Sequence record: PZ295659.1
DNA: 64,000 nt
DNA from: a phage
Direction: 5' to 3' (one strand)
The notes below the pieces were generated by a model, which made no database searches, had not been told where the DNA came from, and saw only the letters and a list, made by a program, of their open reading frames with translations. Below are positions 13,709-61,963 of this stretch, one piece after another. The stretch's first letter is position 1, and each line of letters starts with the position of its first letter. Made by a program: the position numbers and the translations under genes.

Positions 13709-14070
13709 TATAGACTCTCAGTAAAGGTACGAGCGATAACGTCACGCTGCTGTTCCGGAGTCAGAGAGTTAAAGCGAACTGCATAACCGGATACACGGAT
13801 GGTCAGCTGCGGATATTTTTCAGGATGCTTAACTGCATCTTCCAGAGTTTCGCGACGCAGAACGTTAACGTTCAGGTGTTGACCACCTTCAATTTTAACT
13901 TTAGGTTGATGTTCAATTTCAATTTCACGAGCATTAAAACCGTAGAAAATTTCCGGGTCTACAATAGCGTCTTCTTTAAAAGTCTTAGAGACAATAATCC
14001 GGGCTTGAGTATCGTCTTCAAAATAAATAGTGCCTTTATGTGCACCTTCAAGAATTTGATATGCTTTCAT
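13708..14070 (-). CDS. grcA-like: autonomous glycyl radical cofactor (GrcA/YfiD-like)
   Basis: C-terminal [60 protein letters not shown] carries the glycyl-radical RVSGY motif and looks near-identical to enterobacterial GrcA. Confidence 0.85.
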
Positions 14071-14076
14071 ATAACC

Positions 14077-14385
14077 TCAATTAGAAAATAAATTTATCCA
14101 AGATTTTTCTTTAATCAAAAATGGGTCGGAATTATACGCCATTAAACTTTGAGTGATTAATCCCTTAAATGGTCCATCAATAAATTCCATTTTGAAATGT
14201 GGAATACTAGTCATCAACCGTGCATTAGGAGCAGTACAAAGAACCTGCTGCCCTGCGAACGGACCTTTAGTCAAACGATATCGTTTAGGTTTAAAATGGT
14301 AAATCTCGTAATTTTCTACAAGAGCCCTTTTATTGCATACTGGGCTGTTATAACAATACTCAAAAACTTCAATAGTGGTCATCAT
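14077..14385 (-). CDS. hypothetical protein
   Basis: ATG at 14385 overlapping upstream stop (ATGATGA). Confidence 0.4.
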   Translation of the reverse strand: MMTTIEVFEYCYNSPVCNKRALVENYEIYHFKPKRYRLTKGPFAGQQVLCTAPNARLMTSIPHFKMEFIDGPFKGLITQSLMAYNSDPFLIKEKSWINLFSN

Positions 14386-14921
14386 TGCATTCCAATCACA
14401 AAAAATTGAGGACGAGCAATACCGCCGATGCAATATTTGCTTTTGCAGCAGTGCTGTACTGATTTAATATGGACATTGTAAATCTTATCCATATCAGGAG
14501 CTTTAATAGGCTCGTCAATTATATACAGAATACGAGAAAGCATTAATCCACGGAATTTAGAACCTTCATTGCCAATAAAACTACGGACAGAATCAGTAAA
14601 TAAACGGAATCGAATATCATCGCTAGAATAACGAGAAAATTCTTTTTTAATGTTGCCAACAGAAATTTTAGCATAAGCTGAAGTATTAGAAAGAACAATA
14701 ACTGTTCCACCGTCGTACAGCCAATTAACCGCAAAATTAGTTACTGCGGTCGATTTACCTGATTGTCTGCCACCATCTAAACGAAGTGTACAGTACTGCT
14801 TGAGTACGTCTTCAAATGGCGGGGCATAACCGTTCTTACAAATTTCTTCTACTCTAGCATCAGAATGGTGTGTAAAAGCATTCATCAGGGATAGATAAGG
14901 TCCAGTTAAAAATGTTCTCAT
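14382..14921 (-). CDS. small P-loop NTPase (Walker A GGRQSGKST, Walker B-like IIDEP)
   Basis: 179-aa ORF, motifs read from translation. Confidence 0.5.
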   Translation of the reverse strand: MRTFLTGPYLSLMNAFTHHSDARVEEICKNGYAPPFEDVLKQYCTLRLDGGRQSGKSTAVTNFAVNWLYDGGTVIVLSNTSAYAKISVGNIKKEFSRYSSDDIRFRLFTDSVRSFIGNEGSKFRGLMLSRILYIIDEPIKAPDMDKIYNVHIKSVQHCCKSKYCIGGIARPQFFVIGMQ

Positions 14922-15094
14922 TTAGTTTCTCTTAAGGTTGGGGGCCATTCCGTGGCACATGTTAGGTCCTTCGACTCGCTATGTAAACCCATTACCGCAT
15001 TGCGCTCGACCTTATTACAGGTTGGAAAAGGTACATCACTCAGAGGACTCGACGTTCATAAGGAGAGGTTGCGTTTCCCTTTATTAGGCAAGAA

Positions 15095-15424
15095 TTATAC
15101 TCTAGGCTTTTGAGCTTGTTTGGTATTGGATTCCCATGCGGCTTTGGTAATTTTGTTAGCGGCATAACCAAAGGCACTAGATAGAACACCTTTAGAGTTG
15201 AATACATCCAATCCAATAAGTACACCGGCTGTGTTAAATTTAGGAGCAAAGTACGCATTAGTTTTAGAAAGAGCTTTTTTCAATTCAGGGTCTTGAACCA
15301 AGCCATCAAAAACGCCTTTACTATTTACTTTATATGTTACTTTGGGATTTTTAGCTTCTTCGATAGCAGCTTTCTGTTCCGCAGATAATGTAACTTCAGT
15401 GATAAACTCTTGATATGTTTTCAT
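15095..15424 (-). CDS. ipII: internal head protein with capsid-targeting sequence (ipII-like)
   Basis: N-terminus MKTYQEFITE, the T4 CTS cleaved by gp21 after LxE; 109 aa. Confidence 0.6.
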   Translation of the reverse strand: MKTYQEFITEVTLSAEQKAAIEEAKNPKVTYKVNSKGVFDGLVQDPELKKALSKTNAYFAPKFNTAGVLIGLDVFNSKGVLSSAFGYAANKITKAAWESNTKQAQKPRV

Positions 15425-15465
15425 ATGTTTCCTTTAAATGTAAATAGGCCTAAGTATAGGCCTTA

Positions 15466-16044
15466 TTAATTACCACGGGCTGCATTAGCAACGGCATAAG
15501 CGTACTGAACATTAGCGTCTTTAAACGTACCTTTAGAGGTATCTATTTCTGCCTTAAAGCCGCCTTTAGCCATAACATCGGCAAATTCTTTACGGAAAGC
15601 CATTGCATCAAGACCTTTCCATGATGATTTGTGCTTGGCGAATTCAAGACCAGCGTAGTTGACAGCCTTAGCTAATTTATTATCAATAACCCATTTACCG
15701 GCTTTAGGCACAAACTTCGGGCCTTTTTGTTTAGAGAACAGTTTTAAATTCCAGCGACGAAGATCACTGTCGGCTTTAACAAAAGCTGCGTCTAAGTTAC
15801 TAGCAACAACATCTTCAATATGAGCAAATTTAAGTCCGTCAACTTCAATATTTAGATCGTTACGCCAGCGAAGTCCTTCCCAAGCGAAGGCTTTAAAATC
15901 AGAAGCTTTTGTGGCTAGATATCGTTCAATTGGAGCAGTTTTAGGGTCAAAGCCGTTTCCACCACGATAAGTCCACTCGTCCTTATTAATGCCTTGAGCT
16001 TTTCCTGCAAAGGCCTCGGCGATAAATTCTTTATACGTTTTCAT
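15466..16044 (-). CDS. ipIII: internal head protein with capsid-targeting sequence (ipIII-like)
   Basis: N-terminus MKTYKEFIAE; 192 aa, similar in size to T4 IPIII. Confidence 0.6.
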   Translation of the reverse strand: MKTYKEFIAEAFAGKAQGINKDEWTYRGGNGFDPKTAPIERYLATKASDFKAFAWEGLRWRNDLNIEVDGLKFAHIEDVVASNLDAAFVKADSDLRRWNLKLFSKQKGPKFVPKAGKWVIDNKLAKAVNYAGLEFAKHKSSWKGLDAMAFRKEFADVMAKGGFKAEIDTSKGTFKDANVQYAYAVANAARGN

Positions 16045-16065
16045 TTTTGTTTCCTTGTTTGTTTT

Positions 16066-16104
16066 GATAGAGTAATTATACCATATTAATACTTAAGCGT
16101 AAAC
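16066..16104 (-). promoter_or_regulatory. early-promoter-like element upstream of ipIII
   Basis: gtaaac at 16099-16104, AT-rich -10 region. Confidence 0.35.
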
Positions 16105-16169
16105 TGTTTAAGCTTTACCGCCGGAAATAATTCCGAAGTTGTTAAAATCGTATCCAATATCGTCAACAT

Positions 16170-16367
16170 CTACTTTAGGCTTGCTACAACATAAGCAATT
16201 TCACTACGTTTTGCATAGGTGTTGATTTCTTTACCATCGCCACCTAAGAAAAAATACCCATTACGTTTTAATGAGCCAAAGTCTTCCGCATCACCAATGA
16301 AAGCTTTAACTTTAAATTTAGGACCTTTGGCATCTGCTTCAGCGATAAATTCTTGATACATTTTCAT
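16170..16367 (-). CDS. small internal-protein-like ORF with capsid-targeting sequence
   Basis: N-terminus MKMYQEFIAE; 65 aa. Confidence 0.5.
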   Translation of the reverse strand: MKMYQEFIAEADAKGPKFKVKAFIGDAEDFGSLKRNGYFFLGGDGKEINTYAKRSEIAYVVASLK

Positions 16368-16373
16368 TTTTCC

Positions 16374-16787
16374 TTAGTAAATTGATTTACCATAGTATTT
16401 GTACCAAGTAGGACGTTGAGCAATTTTTTCATCTAAGCGTGCTTGACTTATCGCAATGGACGCTTCTGACGGGACATAATTATTACGAAATTCGGCAGGG
16501 ATGTCAGAAATATCCTGAACAGTCGTGTCCTTGATTTTGAAACCACGTTTCAAGCATTCAGCGATTAGCTCGATTTGTCGTAAACGTAAAAATTCGAGTT
16601 TGTCGTAAAAGAATGTTACGTGACCTGTGCCTAAGATAAATGTTGGAGAGATTTTAAAATCCTTTACACGTTTACCGTTTTGAACATGTTTACGGACCGC
16701 ACCAAATACGCGTGGTAATTCACGATACTCAGCCATAAGATGTTGGTCGGTCAGTTCAGAAACAAGTGTTAAATTGATACGAGTCAT
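16374..16787 (-). CDS. denV: endonuclease V (pyrimidine-dimer DNA glycosylase/AP lyase)
   Basis: [34 protein letters not shown]... closely matches remembered T4 DenV; start set at ATG 16787. Confidence 0.9.
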
Positions 16788-16792
16788 AATTT

Positions 16793-16844
16793 CCTCCAAG
16801 TAGTTGATGAATGTATAGTATCAAAGTCCTTGGAGGAAGTAAAC
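16793..16844 (-). promoter_or_regulatory. early-promoter-like element with inverted repeat CCTCCAAG/CTTGGAGG including the denV SD
   Basis: gtaaac at 16839-16844; inverted-repeat arms 16793-16800 and 16829-16836. Confidence 0.45.
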
Positions 16845-16845
16845 A

Positions 16846-17127
16846 CTATTTTTCTGAAGCGCCCGAAATATATTTTTCAAGACGTTGTTTCATCAGCGAA
16901 CCGTTCTTGGCGATTTCTTCCGGTTTATCACACATACGCAACAAGGCTTCAAGCTTAACGATATCACTGGTACGTTCAAATTTGCGAGTATCTATCTTAC
17001 TAGCAAGTTCAGAAATACGTGCTAATAGACTTTCAGCTTCAACCAAAGCTGCACCTAGCTTAGTTGCAAATGTGTCAGTAGCTTCGTTAAGAATAGATTC
17101 TGATAAAAATTCACTATATGTTTTCAT
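16846..17127 (-). CDS. internal-protein-like ORF with capsid-targeting sequence
   Basis: ATG at 17127 gives [10 protein letters not shown]...; 93 aa. Confidence 0.5.
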
Positions 17128-17612
17128 ATATACGCTTTCCAAGTTCCTGTTTTAAATGTTGAGATTACGCGTTTCGCACGATTAGGTGTCTGACGATACC
17201 ATTTAGATTGGGCTAGATTTACTGCCGCTTCGTCCCAACGTTTCTGTTGAAGCATACGAAGAGAATTAGTAAAACCAGCGACGCCTGCTACACCCATTTG
17301 GAAGACCATATTAACCAATGCACATCGACGAACTGCATCTAAAGAATCATATACCGGTTTAAGTTTAGCATTACCCAAGATTCCGCGAACGGCTTTATCA
17401 ACGTCTTCATTAAATAGCTTTTCGGCCTCATCAAGGGTAATTGTACCGTTGCATTTACGTCCGATCATTCTGTCAAGTTCAGCTTTAGCTACGGCTAAAG
17501 ACGGGTTCTTTGTTACTAAATGACCTATGCCAATCGTCCAAAAGCCTTCAGTGTCTTTGTATAAAGTCAGTCTAAGACCTTCGTCATTACGAAGCATTTC
17601 AAATATATTCAT
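17124..17612 (-). CDS. e: T4-type lysozyme (endolysin)
   Basis: [32 protein letters not shown]... strongly matches T4 lysozyme including catalytic Glu11, Asp20 and Thr26; track start at 17624 is GTG. Confidence 0.95.
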
Positions 17613-17646
17613 AATACCTCCCACGTTTATAGGAGGTATTTATTAC
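17613..17646 (-). promoter_or_regulatory. inverted repeat sequestering the lysozyme SD, with a late-promoter-like AATAAATA inside the 5' arm region
   Basis: Minus strand AATACCTCC-TATAAACGTG-GGAGGTATT-ATG: 9-bp stem pairs the GGAGG SD; resembles the translational control described for T4 gene e. Confidence 0.55.
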
Positions 17647-18105
17647 TTATAGGATGGTAGTGAGCACCTTATATAATGATTTGCCCATTACATATTCCCA
17701 TTGAGAAGGTTTAATTAAAGCGAATGCATCAAATTCAGGAATCTGTCGTCCGTCTGGGAATGTATGATAGGAATTACAAACACTGTTTCTGAATTGCTCG
17801 TGCTCTACAGGGATGGTATATAGGAACAGATGAATATTCTTATTGTCTGAGTAATGATGTTCACCTAGGTCTTTCAGGAAGGCAGGGTCATATTGTGTAA
17901 ACCCAGTTTCTTCTTCGCATTCACGAATAGCGGCTTCGATAGGAGATTCACCGGGCTCGACACGACCTTTAGGAATATCCCACCGATGAGCTAAAGAACC
18001 TTTAGGACGAGAACCAGTTACACGCCCCATGAATAATTCTTTATCTTCGGTAAGGAAAATAATACCAGCTGATAGTTCTTTCACTTTATTTTTCTTACTC
18101 ATCAT
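17647..18105 (-). CDS. nudE: Nudix hydrolase
   Basis: Nudix box GRVEPGESPIEAAIRECEEETG; immediately follows e as in T4. Confidence 0.8.
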   Translation of the reverse strand: MMSKKNKVKELSAGIIFLTEDKELFMGRVTGSRPKGSLAHRWDIPKGRVEPGESPIEAAIRECEEETGFTQYDPAFLKDLGEHHYSDNKNIHLFLYTIPVEHEQFRNSVCNSYHTFPDGRQIPEFDAFALIKPSQWEYVMGKSLYKVLTTIL

Positions 18106-24840: not shown

Positions 24841-25404
24841 TTATTTACCTAGTTTAGTTATTATAGCTTCGGCAGCAGCTTTTAGCTTAGATGCAGTGTT
24901 AATACGATTTTTAATTTCAGTATACGCATCGCCAAGAACATCAAGGCTATCAGAATAAACACTTACACTATTGCGTTCGCTATTTGAAATAGAACCTTTA
25001 GTTTTACGATCAAAATCAGTGTACACGTCTTGAAGATCACGGGCTGCCTTCTTTGCATCATCCAATGCATCAAGAGCTTTATTCAAAGCATTGACATATT
25101 TTTTAGTGTCAAACATATTCTTAGAAATTTTAACAGGTGCACGTTCAGGAGTAGCTAAGGCGGATTTAGGAACCTGCGTGCCAGATGCCAGTTTCTTAGA
25201 AATTTTGAAAAACGCTTTATTGAAACTATTTTCTTGACTCATCGTAAAAGAACTAGTATCGATGTTATACATTTCAATAGCTTTAGCTTTCCACTTAAGA
25301 AAATCGCCACGGTCTTTTGGATCCAAGTGGAAGAATACTTTAGTAAGATCTGCTTCAGATGGTAATTTTGCTGCTTCTGTTAAAAATTCGGCATAGGTTT
25401 TCAT
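24841..25404 (-). CDS. internal-protein-like ORF with capsid-targeting sequence
   Basis: N-terminus MKTYAEFLTE; 187 aa. Confidence 0.5.
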   Translation of the reverse strand: MKTYAEFLTEAAKLPSEADLTKVFFHLDPKDRGDFLKWKAKAIEMYNIDTSSFTMSQENSFNKAFFKISKKLASGTQVPKSALATPERAPVKISKNMFDTKKYVNALNKALDALDDAKKAARDLQDVYTDFDRKTKGSISNSERNSVSVYSDSLDVLGDAYTEIKNRINTASKLKAAAEAIITKLGK

Positions 25405-25489: not shown

Positions 25490-25522
25490 AAACTAAAAAG
25501 CCCCAACCTTTCGGAAGGGGCT
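25490..25522 (-). terminator. rho-independent terminator, same hairpin as at 9395-9416
   Basis: AGCCCCAACCTTTCGGAAGGGGCT followed on the minus strand by TTTTT. Confidence 0.7.
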
Positions 25523-25640
25523 AAGCCTTGCGGCAACCTTGTCGGGGTTCCACCTGCTAAGGCAAGTGTTTGTACGAAACGCCGGGATTCGAACCCGGTT
25601 ATTAAGCAGTTGACGCTACTCAATATTTTTAAAAGGCCAT
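25523..25640 (-). ncRNA. putative small stable RNA with tRNA-like T-arm, upstream of the terminator
   Basis: Minus strand CCGGGTTCGAATCCCGG T-arm-like hairpin and further helices with no credible ORF; reminiscent of the stable RNAs in the T4 tRNA cluster. Confidence 0.25.
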
Positions 25641-25833
25641 ATCTCGACCATATCCGAACGTTCCGTCAAAAACGCTACTCGGCTTACGGCAAAGATATTT
25701 CCTCGAATCGATAATTCTGTGCGCCGTTTCTGCTGTGATGTAAGGGGATATTAACAAATCATAAAGATTTATTAAGACCAGTCCTTACGCAGGGAACATC
25801 AGTCCGACGACTTACCGGTAGCGACCCGGCTTC

Positions 25834-26178
25834 TTATTTTGGCATATCATCAATTTGCTCTCGACGCCGACGCCATAGATTAATCGCTTCATTAGCACAT
25901 TCGGCGTTTGGTATATGGCGGCAATAATATAATGATTCGCGTTTCTGGAACCGATGTTGCAACGGGATTTCGTTTAAAAGGTCTTTACGGTCAAAGTATT
26001 CAAAACTAGTTAACCCGGAACGATTTTTAAGGAACTTCCAATGGCCGAATTCATTTTGAACATAGATGTAATCTGCATGTTGGTATAACAAATTAATCAA
26101 TCGGTCTGAAATAACTGTATCATATTCGTTAAAATAAAACGTTAAATCATGAACTACCAGATAAATATTGCCTTTCAT
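25834..26178 (-). CDS. hypothetical protein next to the tRNA genes
   Basis: Start moved to ATG 26178 (MKGNIYLV...) to avoid overlap with tRNA-Arg. Confidence 0.4.
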   Translation of the reverse strand: MKGNIYLVVHDLTFYFNEYDTVISDRLINLLYQHADYIYVQNEFGHWKFLKNRSGLTSFEYFDRKDLLNEIPLQHRFQKRESLYYCRHIPNAECANEAINLWRRRREQIDDMPK

Positions 26179-26196: not shown

Positions 26197-26273
<77 letters not shown>

Positions 26274-26279
26274 AATATA

Positions 26280-26353
26280 TGACCCAGACCAGATTCGAAC
26301 TGGTAACCTTTCCCTTATGAGGGGACTGCTGCTAACCGTTGAGCTACAGGGCC
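26280..26353 (-). tRNA. tRNA with CAU anticodon (Ile, lysidine-type, or Met), no encoded CCA
   Basis: Manual fold: acceptor GGCCCTG/CTGGGTC with one mismatch, anticodon loop CTCATAA, T arm ACCAG-TTCGAAT-CTGGT. Confidence 0.7.
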
Positions 26354-27877: not shown

Positions 27878-28165
27878 TTACAGAAGAGTTTTTGCAATAA
27901 TTTTAAGCTGAGCTACAGAAATATGCTTAGCTTTAAACAGTGCAGTCTCTTCAGCCGGAGAGATAACAATAGTAGCGCCATCTTTCTTAGCAGACCATCC
28001 ATCCCCTAAGTAAACAGTACCTTTTACTTCTTCGCCGTCAACCAGACTAATCATTGGTTTACCCTCGCGTCCTTTATTTGCTTTAATAACTTCAGAAGTA
28101 AGGGTTGCTTCGGTCAGAGTAGAAACGTTAGCAACAGGTGATATAAATTCTTTAAATGTTTTCAT
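27878..28165 (-). CDS. ipI: internal head protein with capsid-targeting sequence (ipI position, next to 57B)
   Basis: N-terminus MKTFKEFISP...; 95 aa; location as T4 ipI. Confidence 0.55.
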   Translation of the reverse strand: MKTFKEFISPVANVSTLTEATLTSEVIKANKGREGKPMISLVDGEEVKGTVYLGDGWSAKKDGATIVISPAEETALFKAKHISVAQLKIIAKTLL

Positions 28166-28189
28166 TTTATTTCCTTGAGGTCGTTTATT

Positions 28190-28229
28190 TGATAGGATGA
28201 TAGTAACACACCATCATCCTTATGTAAAC
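28190..28229 (-). promoter_or_regulatory. early-promoter-like element with inverted repeat AGGATGAT...ATCATCCT
   Basis: gtaaac at 28224-28229. Confidence 0.4.
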
Positions 28230-54960: not shown

Positions 54961-56532
54961 ATGAAATTTAATATCTTAAGTTTGTTTGCTCCATGGGCAA
55001 AAATGGACGAACGTGATTACAAAGACCAAGAAAAAGAAAATTTAGAATCTATCACCACACCAAAATTAGACGACGGCGCTAAAGAATACGAAGTATCTGA
55101 AAATGAAGCACAGCAAACATATAATGCTATGTTTCAGAGAATGTTCGGTAGCCAAGAACCAGGGCTCAAATCAACCCGTGAATTAATCGATACGTATCGA
55201 AATTTGATGACGAATTATGAAGTGGATAATGCAGTCTCTGAAATAGTTTCTGATGCTATCGTATATGAAGATGATACAGAAGTCGTTTCTATAAATTTAG
55301 ACAACACAAAATTTAGTCCAAATATCAAATCAATGATGTTGGATGAATTTAACGAAGTGTTAAATCATTTATCTTTCCAACGTAAAGGTTCAGATCATTT
55401 TAGACGTTGGTATGTGGATTCTCGAATTTTCTTCCATAAAATTATTGACCCTAAACGCCCTAAAGAAGGTATTAAAGAGCTTCGTCGTTTAGACCCACGT
55501 CAAGTTCAATATGTCCGTGAAGTTATTACAACCACTGAAGCCGGTGTTAAAATAGTCAAGGGTTATAAAGAATATTTCATTTATGACACATCACACGAAT
55601 CTTATGCTTGTGATGGTCGCATATATGAAGCTGGCACAAAAATAAAAATCCCTAAAGCCGCGATTGTTTATGCCCATTCTGGTTTAGTTGATTGTTGTGG
55701 TAAAAATATCATTGGTTATTTGCATCGGGCTATTAAGCCGGCGAACCAATTAAAACTTCTTGAAGATGCCGTCGTAATTTATCGTATTACTCGTGCTCCT
55801 GATCGTCGTGTATGGTATGTTGATACAGGTAATATGCCTTCAAGAAAAGCAGCAGAACATATGCAACATGTTATGAATACGATGAAAAACCGTATTGCAT
55901 ATGATGCTACTACAGGCAAGATTAAAAACCAGCAGCATATTATGTCGATGACCGAAGATTATTGGTTACAACGACGTGATGGTAAAGCGGTAACAGAAGT
56001 TGACACATTACCAGGTGCAGATAATACTGGAAATATGGAAGATGTACGTTGGTTCCGTAATGCGCTTTATATGGCTTTACGTATTCCTATTACCCGTATT
56101 CCAAGTGACCAAGGTGGTATACAGTTTGATGCTGGTACTTCTATTACACGAGATGAATTGACATTTGGTAAATTTATTCGTGAGCTGCAACATAAATTTG
56201 AAGAGATATTCCTAGACCCGCTTAAAACTAATTTAATTCTTAAAGGAATTATTACAGAAGATGAGTGGAATGATGAAATAAATAATATTAAGATAAAATT
56301 TCATCGGGATAGTTATTTCTCGGAATTAAAGGATGCTGAGATTCTGGAGCGTCGCATTAATATGCTTCAGATGGCCGAACCATTTATTGGTAAATATATT
56401 TCTCACAGAACAGCTATGAAAGATATTCTTCAGATGTCTGACGAGGAAATTGAACAAGAGGCTAAGCAAATTGAAGAAGAGTCGAAAGAGGCTCGTTTCC
56501 AAGACCCCGACCAAGAACAAGAGGATTTTTAA
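54961..56532 (+). CDS. 20: portal vertex protein gp20
   Basis: 523 aa; T4 gp20 is 524 aa. Confidence 0.95.
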
Positions 56533-56759
56533 TGGACGATTTAATTCAAGCTATTAAATCAAACGACCTCGTTGCTACTCGAAAGTTTTTTGAAAGTGCA
56601 ATGGCAGAAAAAACGGTTCGTTTGATTGAAGCACGCAAAGCAGAAATCGCTTCTCAATTTTTGATTGAAGGCGAAGAACCTGAAGAAGAGAAAGATTCGG
56701 AAGACGACGCTGATGAAGGCGATGACGACGAAGACGAAGATGATGAGGACGATGAATAA
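56532..56759 (+). CDS. 67: prohead core protein gp67
   Basis: 75 aa with acidic D/E-rich C-terminus, between 20 and 68. Confidence 0.8.
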
Positions 56760-57184
56760 TGTATCTTATCCCTGAATCTTATGAATTGGTACTCGAAAAT
56801 GTCGAAGCACTTATTCCTGAAGCACAGGGCCGAATCGATGCATTGTCTTCTGCTCTCGATATTGACGATATAAATACTATTATCGAGAACATGCTTGAAA
56901 CTGAAACGGATTTAGCTGTTGCAATGGCTTCCATTATTAATGAAGAACAGTTAAATGAGTTTATCGTTAAACATGTTTCTTCTCGTGGTGAAGTCACTCG
57001 CACTAAAGACCGTAAAACTCGTGAACGTAACGCGTTCCAAACAACTGGTCTTTCTAAAGCAAAACGTAGACAAATCGCTCGTAAGGTCGTTAAAGCTAAA
57101 AAAGCTAACCCTTCAGGCCAAGTTAAAGGCTTGCGTAAGCGTAAAAAAGCTCTTAAACGTCGTAAAGCATTAGGATTAAGCTAA
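56759..57184 (+). CDS. 68: prohead core protein gp68
   Basis: 141 aa, basic C-terminus; T4 gp68 is 141 aa. Confidence 0.8.
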
Positions 57185-57825
57185 TGAATAAACCCGAGTT
57201 ACTTATTGAAACTTGGGGTCAACCCGGTGAGATTATTGATGGCGTTCCAATGTTGGAATCTCATGATGGAAAAGATTCTGGCTTAAAACCAGGGCTTTAT
57301 ATAGAAGGTATTTTTCTTCAGGCAGAGGTTGTTAACCGAAATAAACGTTTATATCCTAAACGCGTTTTGGAAAAAGCAGTAAGTGACTATATTAAAGAAC
57401 AAGTCGAAACCAAACAAGCCCTTGGAGAATTAAACCATCCACCTCGTGCAAATGTTGACCCCATGCAAGCCGCTATCATTATTGAAGATATGTGGTGGAA
57501 AGGAAACGATGTATATGGACGTGCTAGAATTATTGAAGGCGACCATGGTCCCGGTGATAAATTAGCTGCTAATATACGAGCTGGTTGGATTCCAGGTGTT
57601 TCCTCTCGTGGTCTTGGTTCTTTAACCGACACCAATAAAGGGTACCGTATCGTGAACGAAGGATTTAAATTAACCGTCGGCGTAGATGCCGTATGGGGAC
57701 CTTCTGCTCCAGATGCTTGGGTTACTCCTAAACAAATATCAGAATCAGAAAATTCGGTGGAAATCACCAAAAACAGTGCTGACGAAGCATTTAAAGCTCT
57801 CGCAGAGAGTTTAAAAGCATTATAA
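57184..57825 (+). CDS. 21: prohead core protease gp21
   Basis: 213 aa; T4 gp21 is 212 aa. Confidence 0.9.
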   Translation: MNKPELLIETWGQPGEIIDGVPMLESHDGKDSGLKPGLYIEGIFLQAEVVNRNKRLYPKRVLEKAVSDYIKEQVETKQALGELNHPPRANVDPMQAAIIIEDMWWKGNDVYGRARIIEGDHGPGDKLAANIRAGWIPGVSSRGLGSLTDTNKGYRIVNEGFKLTVGVDAVWGPSAPDAWVTPKQISESENSVEITKNSADEAFKALAESLKAL

Positions 57826-57858: not shown

Positions 57859-58671
57859 ATGATCAAAGAACAACTTTTGAAAGAAGCTCAGAACATCGAG
57901 ACTTCAGTTGCTCTTAATAGTGTTTTCGAATCAGTAGAACTGTCTCCGGACGTTAAAGCTAATTTCAGCACTGTATTCGAAGCCACCGTTAAGCAGGAAG
58001 CAGTCAAACTGGCTGAATCTCATATCAAAGCCATCGCCGAAAAGGCCGAAGAAGAAGTTGAAAAGGCTAAAGAAGATGCTGAAGAGAAAGCTGATAAAAA
58101 ATTGGCTGAACAAGCTTCTAAATTCCTAGACCATCTTGCAAAAGAATGGCTCGCAGAAAACCAAATCGCAGTTGATAAAGGCATTAAAGCTGATTTGTTC
58201 GAATCCATGCTTGGTGGTCTGAAAGAACTGTTTGTTGAACATAACGTTGTTGTTCCAGAAGAATCTGTAGATGTTGTAGCAGAAATGGAAGAAGAGCTGG
58301 CCGAACATAAAGAAGAAACCGCTCGTTTGTTCGAAGAAGTTACCAAACGTGATGCATATATCAATTACGTTCAGCGTGAAACCGCTATTAATGAAAGCGT
58401 AAAAGACCTGACTGAATCTCAGAAAGAAAAAGTTATTGGCCTGGTTGAAGGTATGGATTATTCTGACGCATTTGGTACTAAGTTAACTGCTATTGTAGAA
58501 ATGGTTAAAGGTTCTACTAAAGAAGAAGCCGCTATTACCGAAAATATAAATACAGTTGACAATGACGCTGCCGGTCTTAATTTTGTTGCCGAAGCAGTTG
58601 ACACTACCACAACTCAGGTAGAACAGAATTCTAATGTAAGTTTATATGCGAAAGTCGCATCTCGTTTCTAA
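57859..58671 (+). CDS. 22: prohead core scaffold protein gp22
   Basis: 270 aa, E/K-rich coiled coil. Confidence 0.9.
   Translation: MIKEQLLKEAQNIETSVALNSVFESVELSPDVKANFSTVFEATVKQEAVKLAESHIKAIAEKAEEEVEKAKEDAEEKADKKLAEQASKFLDHLAKEWLAENQIAVDKGIKADLFESMLGGLKELFVEHNVVVPEESVDVVAEMEEELAEHKEETARLFEEVTKRDAYINYVQRETAINESVKDLTESQKEKVIGLVEGMDYSDAFGTKLTAIVEMVKGSTKEEAAITENINTVDNDAAGLNFVAEAVDTTTTQVEQNSNVSLYAKVASRF
58545..58552 (+). promoter_or_regulatory. candidate late promoter TATAAATA inside the 3' end of gene 22 (possible gene 23 promoter)
   Basis: Exact TATAAATA 137 nt upstream of gene 23 ATG; no closer match. Confidence 0.4.
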
Positions 58672-58688: not shown

Positions 58689-60257
58689 ATGACTACTATC
58701 AAAACTAAAGCTCAGCTCGTAGACAAATGGAAAGAACTGCTGGAAGGTGAAGGCCTGCCGGAAATCGCTAATAGCAAGCAGGCTATTATCGCTAAAATCT
58801 TCGAAAACCAGGAAAAAGATTTCGAAGTATCCCCTGAATATAAAGACGAGAAAATCGCTCAGGCATTTGGTTCTTTCTTGACCGAAGCTGAAATTGGTGG
58901 TGACCACGGTTATAATGCTCAGAACATCGCAGCAGGTCAAACCTCTGGTGCAGTAACCCAGATTGGGCCGGCAGTTATGGGTATGGTTCGTCGTGCTATT
59001 CCTAATCTGATCGCTTTCGATATTTGTGGTGTTCAGCCTATGAACAGCCCTACCGGTCAGGTATTTGCTCTCCGTGCAGTATATGGTAAAGACCCTATCG
59101 CTGCTGACGCTAAAGAAGCTTTCCATCCGATGTATGCTCCAGACGCGATGTTCTCTGGTCAGGGTGCTGCTAAGAAATTCCCAGCTCTGGCTGCTAGCAC
59201 ACAAACCGTTGTAGGTGATATCTATACTCACTTCTTCCAGGAAACTGGTACTGTGTATCTACAAGCTTCCGCTGTAGTAACAATTGATGCTGGCGCTACC
59301 GATGCAACTAAACTGGATGCTGAAATTAAGAAACAAATGGAAGCTGGTGTACTGGTAGAAATCGCTGAAGGTATGGCTACTTCTATCGCTGAACTTCAGG
59401 AAGGTTTCAACGGTTCTACCGATAACCCATGGAATGAAATGGGCTTCCGTATCGATAAACAAGTTATTGAAGCTAAATCTCGTCAGTTGAAAGCAGCTTA
59501 CTCCATCGAATTGGCACAAGACCTCCGTGCAGTACACGGTATGGATGCTGATGCTGAACTGAGCGGTATTCTTGCTACTGAAATTATGCTGGAAATCAAC
59601 CGTGAAGTTGTTGACTGGATTAACTACTCCGCTCAGGTTGGTAAATCTGGTATGACTAATATCGTTGGTTCTAAAGCTGGTGTATTTGACTTCCAGGACC
59701 CGATTGATATCCGTGGTGCTCGTTGGGCCGGTGAAAGCTTTAAAGCTCTGTTGTTCCAGATTGATAAAGAAGCAGTTGAAATTGCTCGTCAAACCGGTCG
59801 TGGTGAAGGTAACTTCATTATCGCTTCCCGTAACGTAGTTAACGTACTGGCTTCAGTTGATACTGGTATTTCTTACGCTGCACAGGGTCTGGCTTCTGGT
59901 TTTAATACCGACACTACTAAGTCTGTATTTGCCGGTGTACTTGGTGGTAAATACCGCGTATACATCGACCAGTATGCTAAACAGGATTACTTCACCGTTG
60001 GTTACAAAGGCGCTAACGAAATGGATGCAGGTATTTACTATGCTCCTTACGTTGCACTCACCCCACTGCGTGGTTCCGATCCTAAGAACTTCCAGCCGGT
60101 AATGGGCTTTAAAACTCGTTACGGTATCGGTGTTAACCCGTTTGCTGAAAGTTCCCTGCAGGCTCCAGGCGCTCGCATCCAGTCCGGTATGCCGTCTATC
60201 CTGAACAGCCTTGGTAAGAACGCTTACTTCCGCCGTGTATATGTAAAAGGCATCTAA
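58689..60257 (+). CDS. 23: major capsid protein gp23
   Basis: 522 aa; MTTIKTKAQLVDKWKELLEGEGLPEIANSKQAIIAKIFENQEKDF... very close to T4 gp23. Confidence 0.97.
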   Translation: MTTIKTKAQLVDKWKELLEGEGLPEIANSKQAIIAKIFENQEKDFEVSPEYKDEKIAQAFGSFLTEAEIGGDHGYNAQNIAAGQTSGAVTQIGPAVMGMVRRAIPNLIAFDICGVQPMNSPTGQVFALRAVYGKDPIAADAKEAFHPMYAPDAMFSGQGAAKKFPALAASTQTVVGDIYTHFFQETGTVYLQASAVVTIDAGATDATKLDAEIKKQMEAGVLVEIAEGMATSIAELQEGFNGSTDNPWNEMGFRIDKQVIEAKSRQLKAAYSIELAQDLRAVHGMDADAELSGILATEIMLEINREVVDWINYSAQVGKSGMTNIVGSKAGVFDFQDPIDIRGARWAGESFKALLFQIDKEAVEIARQTGRGEGNFIIASRNVVNVLASVDTGISYAAQGLASGFNTDTTKSVFAGVLGGKYRVYIDQYAKQDYFTVGYKGANEMDAGIYYAPYVALTPLRGSDPKNFQPVMGFKTRYGIGVNPFAESSLQAPGARIQSGMPSILNSLGKNAYFRRVYVKGI

Positions 60258-60679: not shown

Positions 60680-61963
60680 ATGAGTAAAATCCAAAAATTA
60701 TTGCGTGAATCTACAACGTCTACTAGCAACTCAATTGGTCGCCCAAATCTCGTTGCTTTGACTCGCGCTACGACTAAATTAATATATTCTGACATTGTAG
60801 CAACACAAAGAACTAATCAACCTGTTGCTGCTTTTTATGGTATCAAATATCTTAATCCAGATAACGAATTCACATTTAAAACTGGTGCTACTTATGCAGG
60901 CGAAGTTGGATATGTAGACCGAGAAAAAATTACTGAGCTCACAGAAGAATCAAAAGTCACACTAAATAAAGGCGATTTTTTCAAATATAATAATATCGTC
61001 TATAAAGTGTTAGAAGATACACCATTTGCAGATATTCAAGAAAGTGATCTAGAATTAGCTCTTCAGATTGCGGTCGTTCATTTAAAGGTACGGTTATTTT
61101 CAGATGCAGCGGTAACAAGCAAATTTGAAAGCTCTGGTAGCGAAATTTCTGATGCAAGATTCCAGATTAATAAATGGCAAACTTCGGTCAAATCTCGTAA
61201 ACTTAAAACTGGTCTTACAGTTGAATTAGCGCAAGATTTGGAAGCGAATGGATTTGATGCCCCTAACTTCTTAGAAGATTTGCTTGCTACTGAAATGGCT
61301 GATGAAATTAATAAAGATATTCTTCAGTCTTTAATTACTGTATCGAAACGTTATAAAGTTACTGGAATTACTGACACCGGATTTATTGACTTGAGCTATG
61401 CATCCGCTCCAGAAGCAGGTCGTTCATTATATCGAATGGTGTGTGAAATGGTATCACACATTCAAAAAGAGACAACTTATACTGCAACGTTTTGTGTAGC
61501 CTCAGCTCGTGCAGCTGCTATTCTTGCTGCTTCCGGTTGGTTGAAACATAAGCCAGAAGATGACAAGTATCTTTCACAAAATGCTTATGGATTCTTGGCA
61601 AATGGATTACCTCTTTACTGCGATACCAACAGTCCGTTAGATTATGTTATTGTGGGTGTTGTAGAAAATATCGGCGAAAAAGAAATTGTAGGGTCCATCT
61701 TTTATGCTCCATACACTGAAGGAGTAGATTTAGATGACCCGGAACATGTCGGTGCATTTAAAGTTGTAGTTGATCCAGAAAGCTTGCAACCGTCTATCGG
61801 ATTATTGGTTAGATACGCTTTATCAGCAAATCCTTACACAGTAGCAAAAGATGAAAAAGAAGCGAGAATAATTGATGGCGGGGATATGGATAAAATGGCA
61901 GGACGTTCAGACTTGTCTGTTTTACTCGGTGTTAAATTGCCAAAAATTATCGTTGATGAATAA
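60680..61963 (+). CDS. 24: capsid vertex protein gp24
   Basis: 427 aa, same length as T4 gp24; gp23-like fold. Confidence 0.95.
   Translation: MSKIQKLLRESTTSTSNSIGRPNLVALTRATTKLIYSDIVATQRTNQPVAAFYGIKYLNPDNEFTFKTGATYAGEVGYVDREKITELTEESKVTLNKGDFFKYNNIVYKVLEDTPFADIQESDLELALQIAVVHLKVRLFSDAAVTSKFESSGSEISDARFQINKWQTSVKSRKLKTGLTVELAQDLEANGFDAPNFLEDLLATEMADEINKDILQSLITVSKRYKVTGITDTGFIDLSYASAPEAGRSLYRMVCEMVSHIQKETTYTATFCVASARAAAILAASGWLKHKPEDDKYLSQNAYGFLANGLPLYCDTNSPLDYVIVGVVENIGEKEIVGSIFYAPYTEGVDLDDPEHVGAFKVVVDPESLQPSIGLLVRYALSANPYTVAKDEKEARIIDGGDMDKMAGRSDLSVLLGVKLPKIIVDE

Follow-up and report, generated by a model that had tools for sequence, protein, structure and literature searches.

Capsid-targeting sequences at six gene starts

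We analyzed a 64,000-nucleotide stretch of phage DNA (sequence record PZ295659.1; hereafter, the window) in which six open reading frames (ORFs) begin with a capsid-targeting sequence (CTS) of the type carried by the internal proteins (IPs) of phage T4. Megablast of the region placed the 64-kb window in the genus Mosigvirus (RB69-like) of the Tevenvirinae, and the top matches were S143_2, SQ17, phi25-307, phiC120, and Av-05 (96–98%). No single record matched both IP regions together; ChristianSchoenbein and PhAPEC2 were the best matches for 23.5–28.8 kb (~95%).

All six ORFs lie on the minus strand, at the coordinates given in a preliminary description of this DNA that was made from the sequence alone. 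They are IP109 (15095-15424), a 109-aa protein that starts with MKTYQEFITE and has a predicted mature form of 99 aa and pI 9.7; IP192, the product of ipIII (15466-16044; MKTYKEFIAE; 192 aa, mature form 182 aa, pI 9.6); IP65 (16170-16367; MKMYQEFIAE; 65 aa); IP93 (16846-17127), which also starts with a CTS and has 93 aa counted from its ATG (mature pI 6.3), its mechanical ORF extending to a TTG at 17142; IP187 (24841-25404; MKTYAEFLTE; 187 aa, mature form 177 aa, pI 9.5); and IP95, the product of ipI (27878-28165; MKTFKEFISP; 95 aa). The six-frame translation of the whole window was scanned with the CTS pattern MK..xEFxxx, and 100 shuffles of the window served as the null. The pattern matched six times, always at these ORF starts and nowhere else, whereas the shuffles averaged 0.07 matches and never gave more than 1, and looser CTS patterns revealed no further ORF starts in the window. 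A scan of IMG/VR with a CTS-coding pattern yielded matches that, among those listed, were mostly single and probably due to chance.

The first 10 residues of IPIII are enough for head targeting, with residues 4 and 7 serving targeting and residues 8 and 10 serving processing by gp21 (PMC9026906); an aromatic residue at position 4 and Phe at position 7 were defined as the IPIII targeting determinants by Mullaney and Black in 1996, as summarized in PMC9026906. Tyr or Phe at position 4 and Phe at position 7 were present in all six proteins. Five of them kept the complete set (aromatic residue 4, Phe7, Ile or Leu at 8, and Glu10), residues 8–10 reading ITE, IAE, IAE, LSE, and LTE, as the [L/I]-x-E motif of gp21 demands. 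The sixth, IP95, has ISP at residues 8–10 and LTE at residues 17–19, as in T4 IPI, and thus an IPI-type 19-residue propeptide. The preliminary description had cleavage following an LxE motif at the end of the 10-residue CTS; such a motif, in the form [L/I]xE, stands at residues 8–10 in five proteins, while the predicted cut in IP95 is after LTE19. IP93 contains a second possible cut site after LNE15. The predicted mature pI was 9.0–9.7 in five of the six proteins, resembling the T4 IPs, with IP93 (6.3) as the exception. Past the first 10–14 residues, the bodies of the four proteins without a T4 counterpart (IP109, IP65, IP93, and IP187) shared no similarity with one another or with the T4 IPs. 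AAGGA-type ribosome-binding sites were found upstream of five genes; the start of IP93 overlaps the stop codon of gene e.

Orthologs of IPI and IPIII and an Ip5-like protein

IP95 matched the Pfam family PF11634 (IPI_T4) with an E-value of 1.3e-50 and a score of 169.7 bits against a cut-off of 25. It was 89.5% identical to T4 IPI and matched RB69 IPI at every one of its 95 residues. Its residues 20–95 matched residues 1–76 of PDB entry 2JUB, which is the whole of mature IPI* (E = 5.7e-42 for 2JUB_A). Because residues 20–95 equal mature IPI*, the propeptide of IP95 should comprise 19 residues (MKTFKEFISPVANVSTLTE) and be cut after LTE19. On these matches, IP95 is the ipI ortholog, a homolog of the GmrSD inhibitor IPI. 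IP192 was 92.7% identical to T4 IPIII over 192 aa and matched phrog_5341 (E = 8e-118), which identifies it as the ipIII ortholog. No counterpart of T4 ipII was found among the window proteins.

The similarity of IP93 extended beyond the CTS into the body of Ip5 from phage RB15 (Z35082, CAA84462), with 47.6% identity over 84 of 85 aa (E = 5e-24), and IP93 matched phrog_3499, annotated "internal head protein" (E = 1e-46). By homology, IP93 is an Ip5-family internal head protein and the ortholog of RB69 ORF127c. In RB69 itself, the N-terminus of ORF127c is scrambled (MKTYMNFYQNLSLNE) and only the LNE15 site is left (RB69 stretch L004, 3923-4204).

IP65 belongs to the family of RB69 ORF125c and matched phrog_2667, also annotated "internal head protein" (E = 1e-15). 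Members of this family are 86 aa long in RB69, phi25-307, and SQ17, compared with 65 aa in the window, where the frame is shifted by a one-base deletion in a run of C near 16176 (16170-16180). The 21 lost C-terminal codons (VDVDDIGYDFNNFGIISGGKA) persist out of frame downstream, at 16105-16172. An identical 65-aa product was absent from the 50,697 phage records searched, the best match being 98.5% identical. The IP65 allele arose either by recent mutation or through a sequencing error in a homopolymer.

The preliminary description spoke of extra divergent members of the class. That was overstated, since the six include the orthologs of IPI and IPIII and an Ip5-like protein.

Two widespread families called hypothetical

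IP109 is the ortholog of RB69 ORF123c (the RB69 copy is 96% identical) and belongs to phrog_3966, for which no function is given. It occurred in 91 phage records, and nearly all of the matches listed were named "hypothetical protein"; the exceptions among them were one "endonuclease repair enzyme" and one "RNA polymerase ADP-ribosylase." IP187, intact here, corresponds to ORF148c/149c of RB69 and belongs to phrog_2280, again a family of unknown function. It occurred in 165 phage records, mostly from Tequatrovirus, and every match listed was named "hypothetical protein." The RB69 copy, ORF149c, carries a frameshift and has 146 aa (L004, 12551-12991). The scrambled ORF127c and the frameshifted ORF149c reflect either decay of the cassettes or errors in the 2003 RB69 sequence. 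The recognition of IP109 and IP187 as widespread CTS families that are called hypothetical in nearly every match listed is mildly new.

An exhaustive HMMER search with mature IP187 recovered, besides fragments and chimeras, one remote relative (P0020; 29% identity), whose N-terminus is CTS-like (MITFNEFLNE). A word-indexed search of 5.8 billion proteins with IP187, IP109, and IP93 returned near-identical phage copies only. Single-sequence AlphaFold2 modeling gave an all-helical sketch of IP187 with a predicted local distance difference test score (pLDDT) of 67 and an unusable model of IP109 (pLDDT 52). When the IP187 model was compared with BFVD by Foldseek, only its own family was found, including a 21%-identical protein of Yersinia phage fHe-Yen9-01. 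Matches of the four non-T4 proteins to cytochrome b562, ALIX, ETV6, a transporter, and Cas7c in Pfam, NCBIfam, and PDB searches were below threshold and were discarded as chance. A 116-aa metagenome protein (P0010) joins the C-terminal half of IP187 (approximately residues 110–176, 97% identical) to an unrelated N-terminus without a CTS and, from this arrangement, is an example of domain-level mosaicism in the IP187 family.

Five of the six CTS genes lie in the locus from e to vs.8 or in that from 57B to tRNA.4. IP187 lies elsewhere, between e.8 and the homologs of rnaC/rnaD, as an insertion relative to T4, and by its position marks a third site for CTS genes beyond the two classical IP loci. 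The neighboring segment at 25492-25839 on the minus strand was 92% identical to the T4 rnaC/rnaD stable-RNA region and lies just downstream of tRNA-Arg and tRNA-Met (26197-26353); it matched no Rfam family at the gathering threshold. In PhAPEC2 (L003, 8413-8877) and Bas37 (L010, 7718-8191), the IP187 ortholog is adjoined by a further CTS-like gene of 154–157 aa. This gene, starting with MKSYAEFLTE or MKSYTQFLNE, is absent from the window, and its junction corresponds to a short repeat at window positions 25495-25521.

Gene number and order among relatives

Six CTS genes are twice the T4 number: the homologous 16 kb of T4 contains three, as the preliminary description had it. Its further claim of an expanded set did not hold for the genus, in which such numbers are normal. 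CTS ORFs in the homologous regions numbered six in SQ17, seven in phi25-307, at least six in PhAPEC2, and seven in RB69 plus ORF127c with its degraded CTS, and the expansion is therefore not unusual. In phi25-307, six of the seven lie in the e to vs.8 locus, including ipII and a gene for a 104-aa protein. Approximately 11 distinct body families were counted across these few genomes.

The order nudE-e-IP-denV-IP-IP-IP-vs.8 was common to the window, RB69, SQ17, phi25-307, and PhAPEC2. The position of denV between CTS genes had been singled out as a departure from T4. It does differ from the T4 order (denV-ipII-ipIII-e, on the plus strand), but it is the standard order of Mosigvirus.

The window and T4 share the CTS, the gp21 motif, small basic mature proteins, and the two loci (e to denV and 57B to tRNA.4), with IP95 and IP192 as direct orthologs. 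The window differs from T4 in lacking ipII, in having denV embedded among the IP genes, and in its four unrelated bodies. RB69 (NC_004928) has orthologs of five window genes (ORF123c, ORF125c, ORF127c, ORF149c, and ipI) in the same order and positions. By contrast, it carries ORF124c at the place of ipIII and an extra gene, ORF156c, beside ipI; its ORF149c is frameshifted, the CTS of its ORF127c is corrupted, and its ORF125c has the full 86 aa.

A hyperplastic locus of unrelated tandem ORFs that share only the CTS is also known from RB15 (Ip5, Ip9, Ip7, and Ip8; Z35082). The similarity of IP109, IP65, and IP187 to these four proteins is confined to the CTS. A polymorphic Ip4–Ip13 set of T-even phages, including the Ip5 family, was reportedly described by Repoila et al. 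in 1994. The genes of that set occupy the Tequatrovirus ipI locus, whereas the Ip5-like gene of the window adjoins e. Short records of the Repoila type were absent from the tblastn matches listed for IP109, IP187, and IP65; Ip4, Ip6, and Ip10–13 were not directly compared. Bas37_0260 of phage KarlGJung (MZ501089) is likewise small, begins with the CTS MKTYQEFIAE, and is encoded at the ipI locus, but its body is unrelated to all six window proteins. In the same phage, the neighboring bas37_0261 is identical to Ip5, and bas37_0243 is the IP187 ortholog (96.8%).

Probable exchange of bodies behind a conserved leader

Breakpoints of homology were mapped by local blastn of the window against phi25-307, RB69, PhAPEC2, and T4. 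With phi25-307, RB69, and PhAPEC2, homology broke at 15394-15424, 16016-16044, and 28143-28197, which are CTS-coding stretches and their leaders. In the comparison with phi25-307, one block ended at 15424, the start codon of IP109, and the next began at 15394, the CTS of IP109 pairing with that of the additional ipII; a third block began at 16016, where the CTS of ipIII paired with the CTS of the additional 104-aa gene. Homology to RB69 resumed at 16016, within the CTS; RB69 thus has the same promoter, leader, and CTS as the window here, but followed by the body of ORF124c in place of that of ipIII. The additional RB69 gene ORF156c, at the ipI locus, is flanked on both sides by a repeat of 28143-28197, which comprises CTS and leader. 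Among the six leaders and CTS-coding stretches of the window, 19 of 66 alignment columns were invariant. Since the breakpoints fall inside the 30 nt that encode the CTS and inside the 5′ leader, the bodies appear to be swapped as cassettes.

The nucleotide identity of ipIII to T4 (15449-16056) was 89.9%, compared with 71% for e/nudE, 78% for denV, and 79% for vs.6-8; the flanks used for this comparison were 14000-15025 and 16378-18095. IP187 and its flanks were 94.7% identical to those of the Tequatrovirus phage RB14. These values, together with the lack of ipIII at this place in RB69, suggest that the ipIII cassette has recently moved between Tequatrovirus and Mosigvirus, and the pattern at IP187 is alike. 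The observed breakpoints are consistent with cassettes that recombine at the conserved leader and CTS and are also exchanged across genus boundaries. Such a model is said to have been proposed by Repoila et al. in 1994. The base-by-base mapping of the breakpoints to the CTS leader is a mildly new observation, as are the third site by the stable RNAs and the frameshifted allele of the ORF125c family.

Predicted packaging, injection, and anti-restriction function

The preliminary description had suggested that the extra IPs are injected anti-defense effectors. This is the best-supported function for the class, and the idea is in the literature already. Each of the T4 proteins Ip1, Ip2, and Ip3 inhibits its own GmrSD type IV enzyme without cross-protection (PMC12373910), IPI* inhibits GmrSD (PMC3012670), and RB69 IPI prevents the restriction of RB69 by GmrSD (PMC6024577). 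The CTS protein Bas37_0260 inhibits McrBC (bioRxiv 10.1101/2025.11.20.689424). A T4 head contains each IP in approximately 300 copies (PMC9026906), and the IPs are injected with the DNA (PMC12373910). The idea of injected anti-defense proteins was stated in 2010 (PMC3012670), and Silas et al. (2025) proposed that all proteins of two Ip loci target GmrSD variants (PMC12373910). The DNA of RB69 carries arabinosyl-hydroxymethylcytosine (PMC6024577), as Mosigvirus DNA does, in contrast to the glucosyl-hydroxymethylcytosine of the T4 type (PMC6024577, PMC8594841).

Two head-assembly proteins on which the CTS depends are encoded in the window. The prohead core serine protease gp21 (57184-57825, plus strand; PF03420 Peptidase_S77, E = 2.5e-107) is the expected remover of CTS propeptides, and the scaffolding core protein gp22 (57859-58671, plus strand; PF25623 T4_CASP, E = 1.5e-89) recruits CTS proteins; gp67 (56532-56759; PF17634) is encoded just upstream of them. 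Because gp67, gp21, and gp22 are all encoded in the window, the machinery for packaging and processing CTS proteins is on the same fragment as the IP genes.

We favor, with a probability of approximately 0.72, the explanation that this RB69-like Mosigvirus carries six polymorphic genes of the IP class whose products are packaged, processed, injected, and directed against restriction, and which evolve by cassette exchange. The CTS of ~10 residues would direct each product to the scaffolding core that gp22 forms in the prohead, and gp21 would then remove the propeptide after [L/I]xE, at residue 10 in five proteins and at residue 19 in the IPI ortholog. The small and mostly basic mature proteins would stay in the DNA-filled head and be ejected into the cell together with the DNA, where each would most likely neutralize one host nuclease that acts against sugar-modified hydroxymethylcytosine DNA, that is, a type IV enzyme of the GmrSD/McrBC kind. 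The genes would behave as exchangeable cassettes, with the 5′ leader and the CTS-coding 30 nt providing the homology for insertion, deletion, or replacement of bodies within and between genera. For IP95 and IP192, we infer an anti-restriction function from close orthology to characterized T4 proteins. IP109, IP65, IP93, and IP187 would be packaged, cleaved, injected, and active against restriction by analogy with the other members of their class, T4 Ip1–3 and Bas37_0260. Relatives of this phage carry the same genes, and none of these has been assigned a function outside defense.

Several observations weigh against this explanation. The preliminary description had proposed a profile and structure search against known anti-restriction proteins; Pfam, NCBIfam, PDB sequence, homology, and IP187 fold searches linked none of IP109, IP65, IP93, and IP187 to such a protein, and the AlphaFold2 models of IP187 and IP109 are of low confidence. 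IP93 is not basic, as calculated from its sequence, and IP65, truncated by its frameshift, may be inactive. No virion proteomics of Mosigvirus IPs was found in the literature. Bas37 carries the IP187 ortholog bas37_0243, which is unmentioned in the main text of the HIDEN-SEQ preprint; that main text contains no mention of bas37_0261 (Ip5) either. Finally, the exact late promoter TATAAATA was found upstream of neither e nor any ip gene in the window. T4 has two exact copies of TATAAATA upstream of e and none directly upstream of its ip genes; the absence at the ip genes of the window is uninformative for that reason.

Some of the six genes might instead be decaying or non-functional cassettes, in particular IP65, as a remnant of exchange that is no longer packaged or active. 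The deletion that shortens IP65 from 86 to 65 aa in an allele unique among the phage records searched is what such decay would leave, and relatives offer parallels in a PhAPEC2 allele with a 38-aa internal deletion, the frameshift of RB69 ORF149c, and the corrupted CTS of RB69 ORF127c. We nevertheless regard this as doubtful, because the other five genes are full length and 96–100% identical to copies in many independent isolates, and because IP65 itself retains an intact CTS and its first 63 residues and differs by a single base in a homopolymer run, which could be a sequencing error.

It is unlikely, though somewhat less so for IP187 and IP109 than a purely structural role would be for the class, that one or both of these proteins act beyond type IV restriction, on another defense or on a host process such as transcription or the membrane at the time of DNA entry. 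IP187 is encoded outside the two loci of the GmrSD proposal of Silas et al. (PMC12373910), and its mature form of 177 aa, predicted to be all-helical, is unlike IPI or Ip2. P0020 and the structural relative in the Yersinia phage suggest an older and broader conservation than would be expected of a narrowly co-evolving inhibitor, and Alt, a packaged T4 protein, modifies RNA polymerase (PMC9026906). However, positive evidence for an alternative target was not found, and all CTS proteins with a known target inhibit type IV enzymes. We give equally low odds to the related proposal that IP187, and possibly IP109, represent unrecognized families of packaged and injected effectors, at least one of which disarms a defense other than GmrSD/McrBC; under that proposal, IP187 would mark a third cassette site, occupied in at least 165 sequenced T-even phages, and the target may be a defense specific for arabinosyl-hydroxymethylcytosine or a non-nuclease system.

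The least probable alternative is that the additional IPs are mainly structural, serving as basic counter-ions or fillers in the condensing, packing, and ejection of DNA, with no host target and under neutral drift: the mature pI of 9.0–9.7 in five of the six proteins, the ~300 copies per head and the DNA binding of T4 IPs at low salt (PMC9026906), the contacts of IP lysines with DNA phosphates (PMC3012670), and the lack of a target-like domain in the four non-T4 proteins would suit it, but all three T4 IPs, like Bas37_0260, act on specific nucleases (PMC12373910; bioRxiv 10.1101/2025.11.20.689424), the wholesale swapping of bodies for unrelated folds with only the CTS kept fits an arms race better than a charge role, and IP93 has no net charge.

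The CTS observation is thus correct and far beyond chance, and the anti-restriction interpretation agrees with published work, in which it is already contained. The concept was published in 1994 and 2010, and experimental confirmation came in 2025; the window adds instances and no new principle. Among phage factors, injected IPs encounter host immunity first, and every IP characterized so far overcomes one particular type IV restriction enzyme. Cataloging CTS genes therefore directly yields candidate anti-defense proteins, among them the "hypothetical" IP109 and IP187. Such a catalog is relevant to predicting the host range of T-even phages for therapy and to finding new host nucleases. The 30-nt coding leader serves as a portable tag for both recombination and packaging and is also the basis of engineered protein delivery in T4 heads.

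Neighboring genes and transcription signals

The locus from e to vs.8 starts with gene e (17124-17624, minus strand; PF00959), which encodes a T4-type lysozyme and is the upstream neighbor of IP93. The stop codon of e (17124-17126) and the ATG of IP93 (17125-17127) overlap as ATGA, which suggests translational coupling of the two genes. The denV gene (16374-16799, minus strand; PF03013), situated between the IP cassettes, encodes endonuclease V, a pyrimidine-dimer glycosylase, and is not itself an IP gene. In the head-assembly region, we take the ORFs at 54961-56532, 56759-57184, 58689-60257, and 60680-61963, by position rather than from family matches, to be gp20, gp68, gp23, and gp24, respectively.

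The only late-promoter-like sequence upstream of e in the window was the near-consensus AATAAATA at approximately 17634-17641. A promoter-like sequence, TTTACG-17-TATAAT, is located at 16103-16075, ahead of ipIII. Generic scans of the window for sigma-70 promoters and terminators gave no enrichment over shuffles. Terminator-like hairpins were observed at 15446-15463, between ipIII and IP109, and at 24836-24814, directly after IP187. The latter hairpin is duplicated relative to T4 at the insertion, and the IP187 cassette therefore appears to carry its own terminator.

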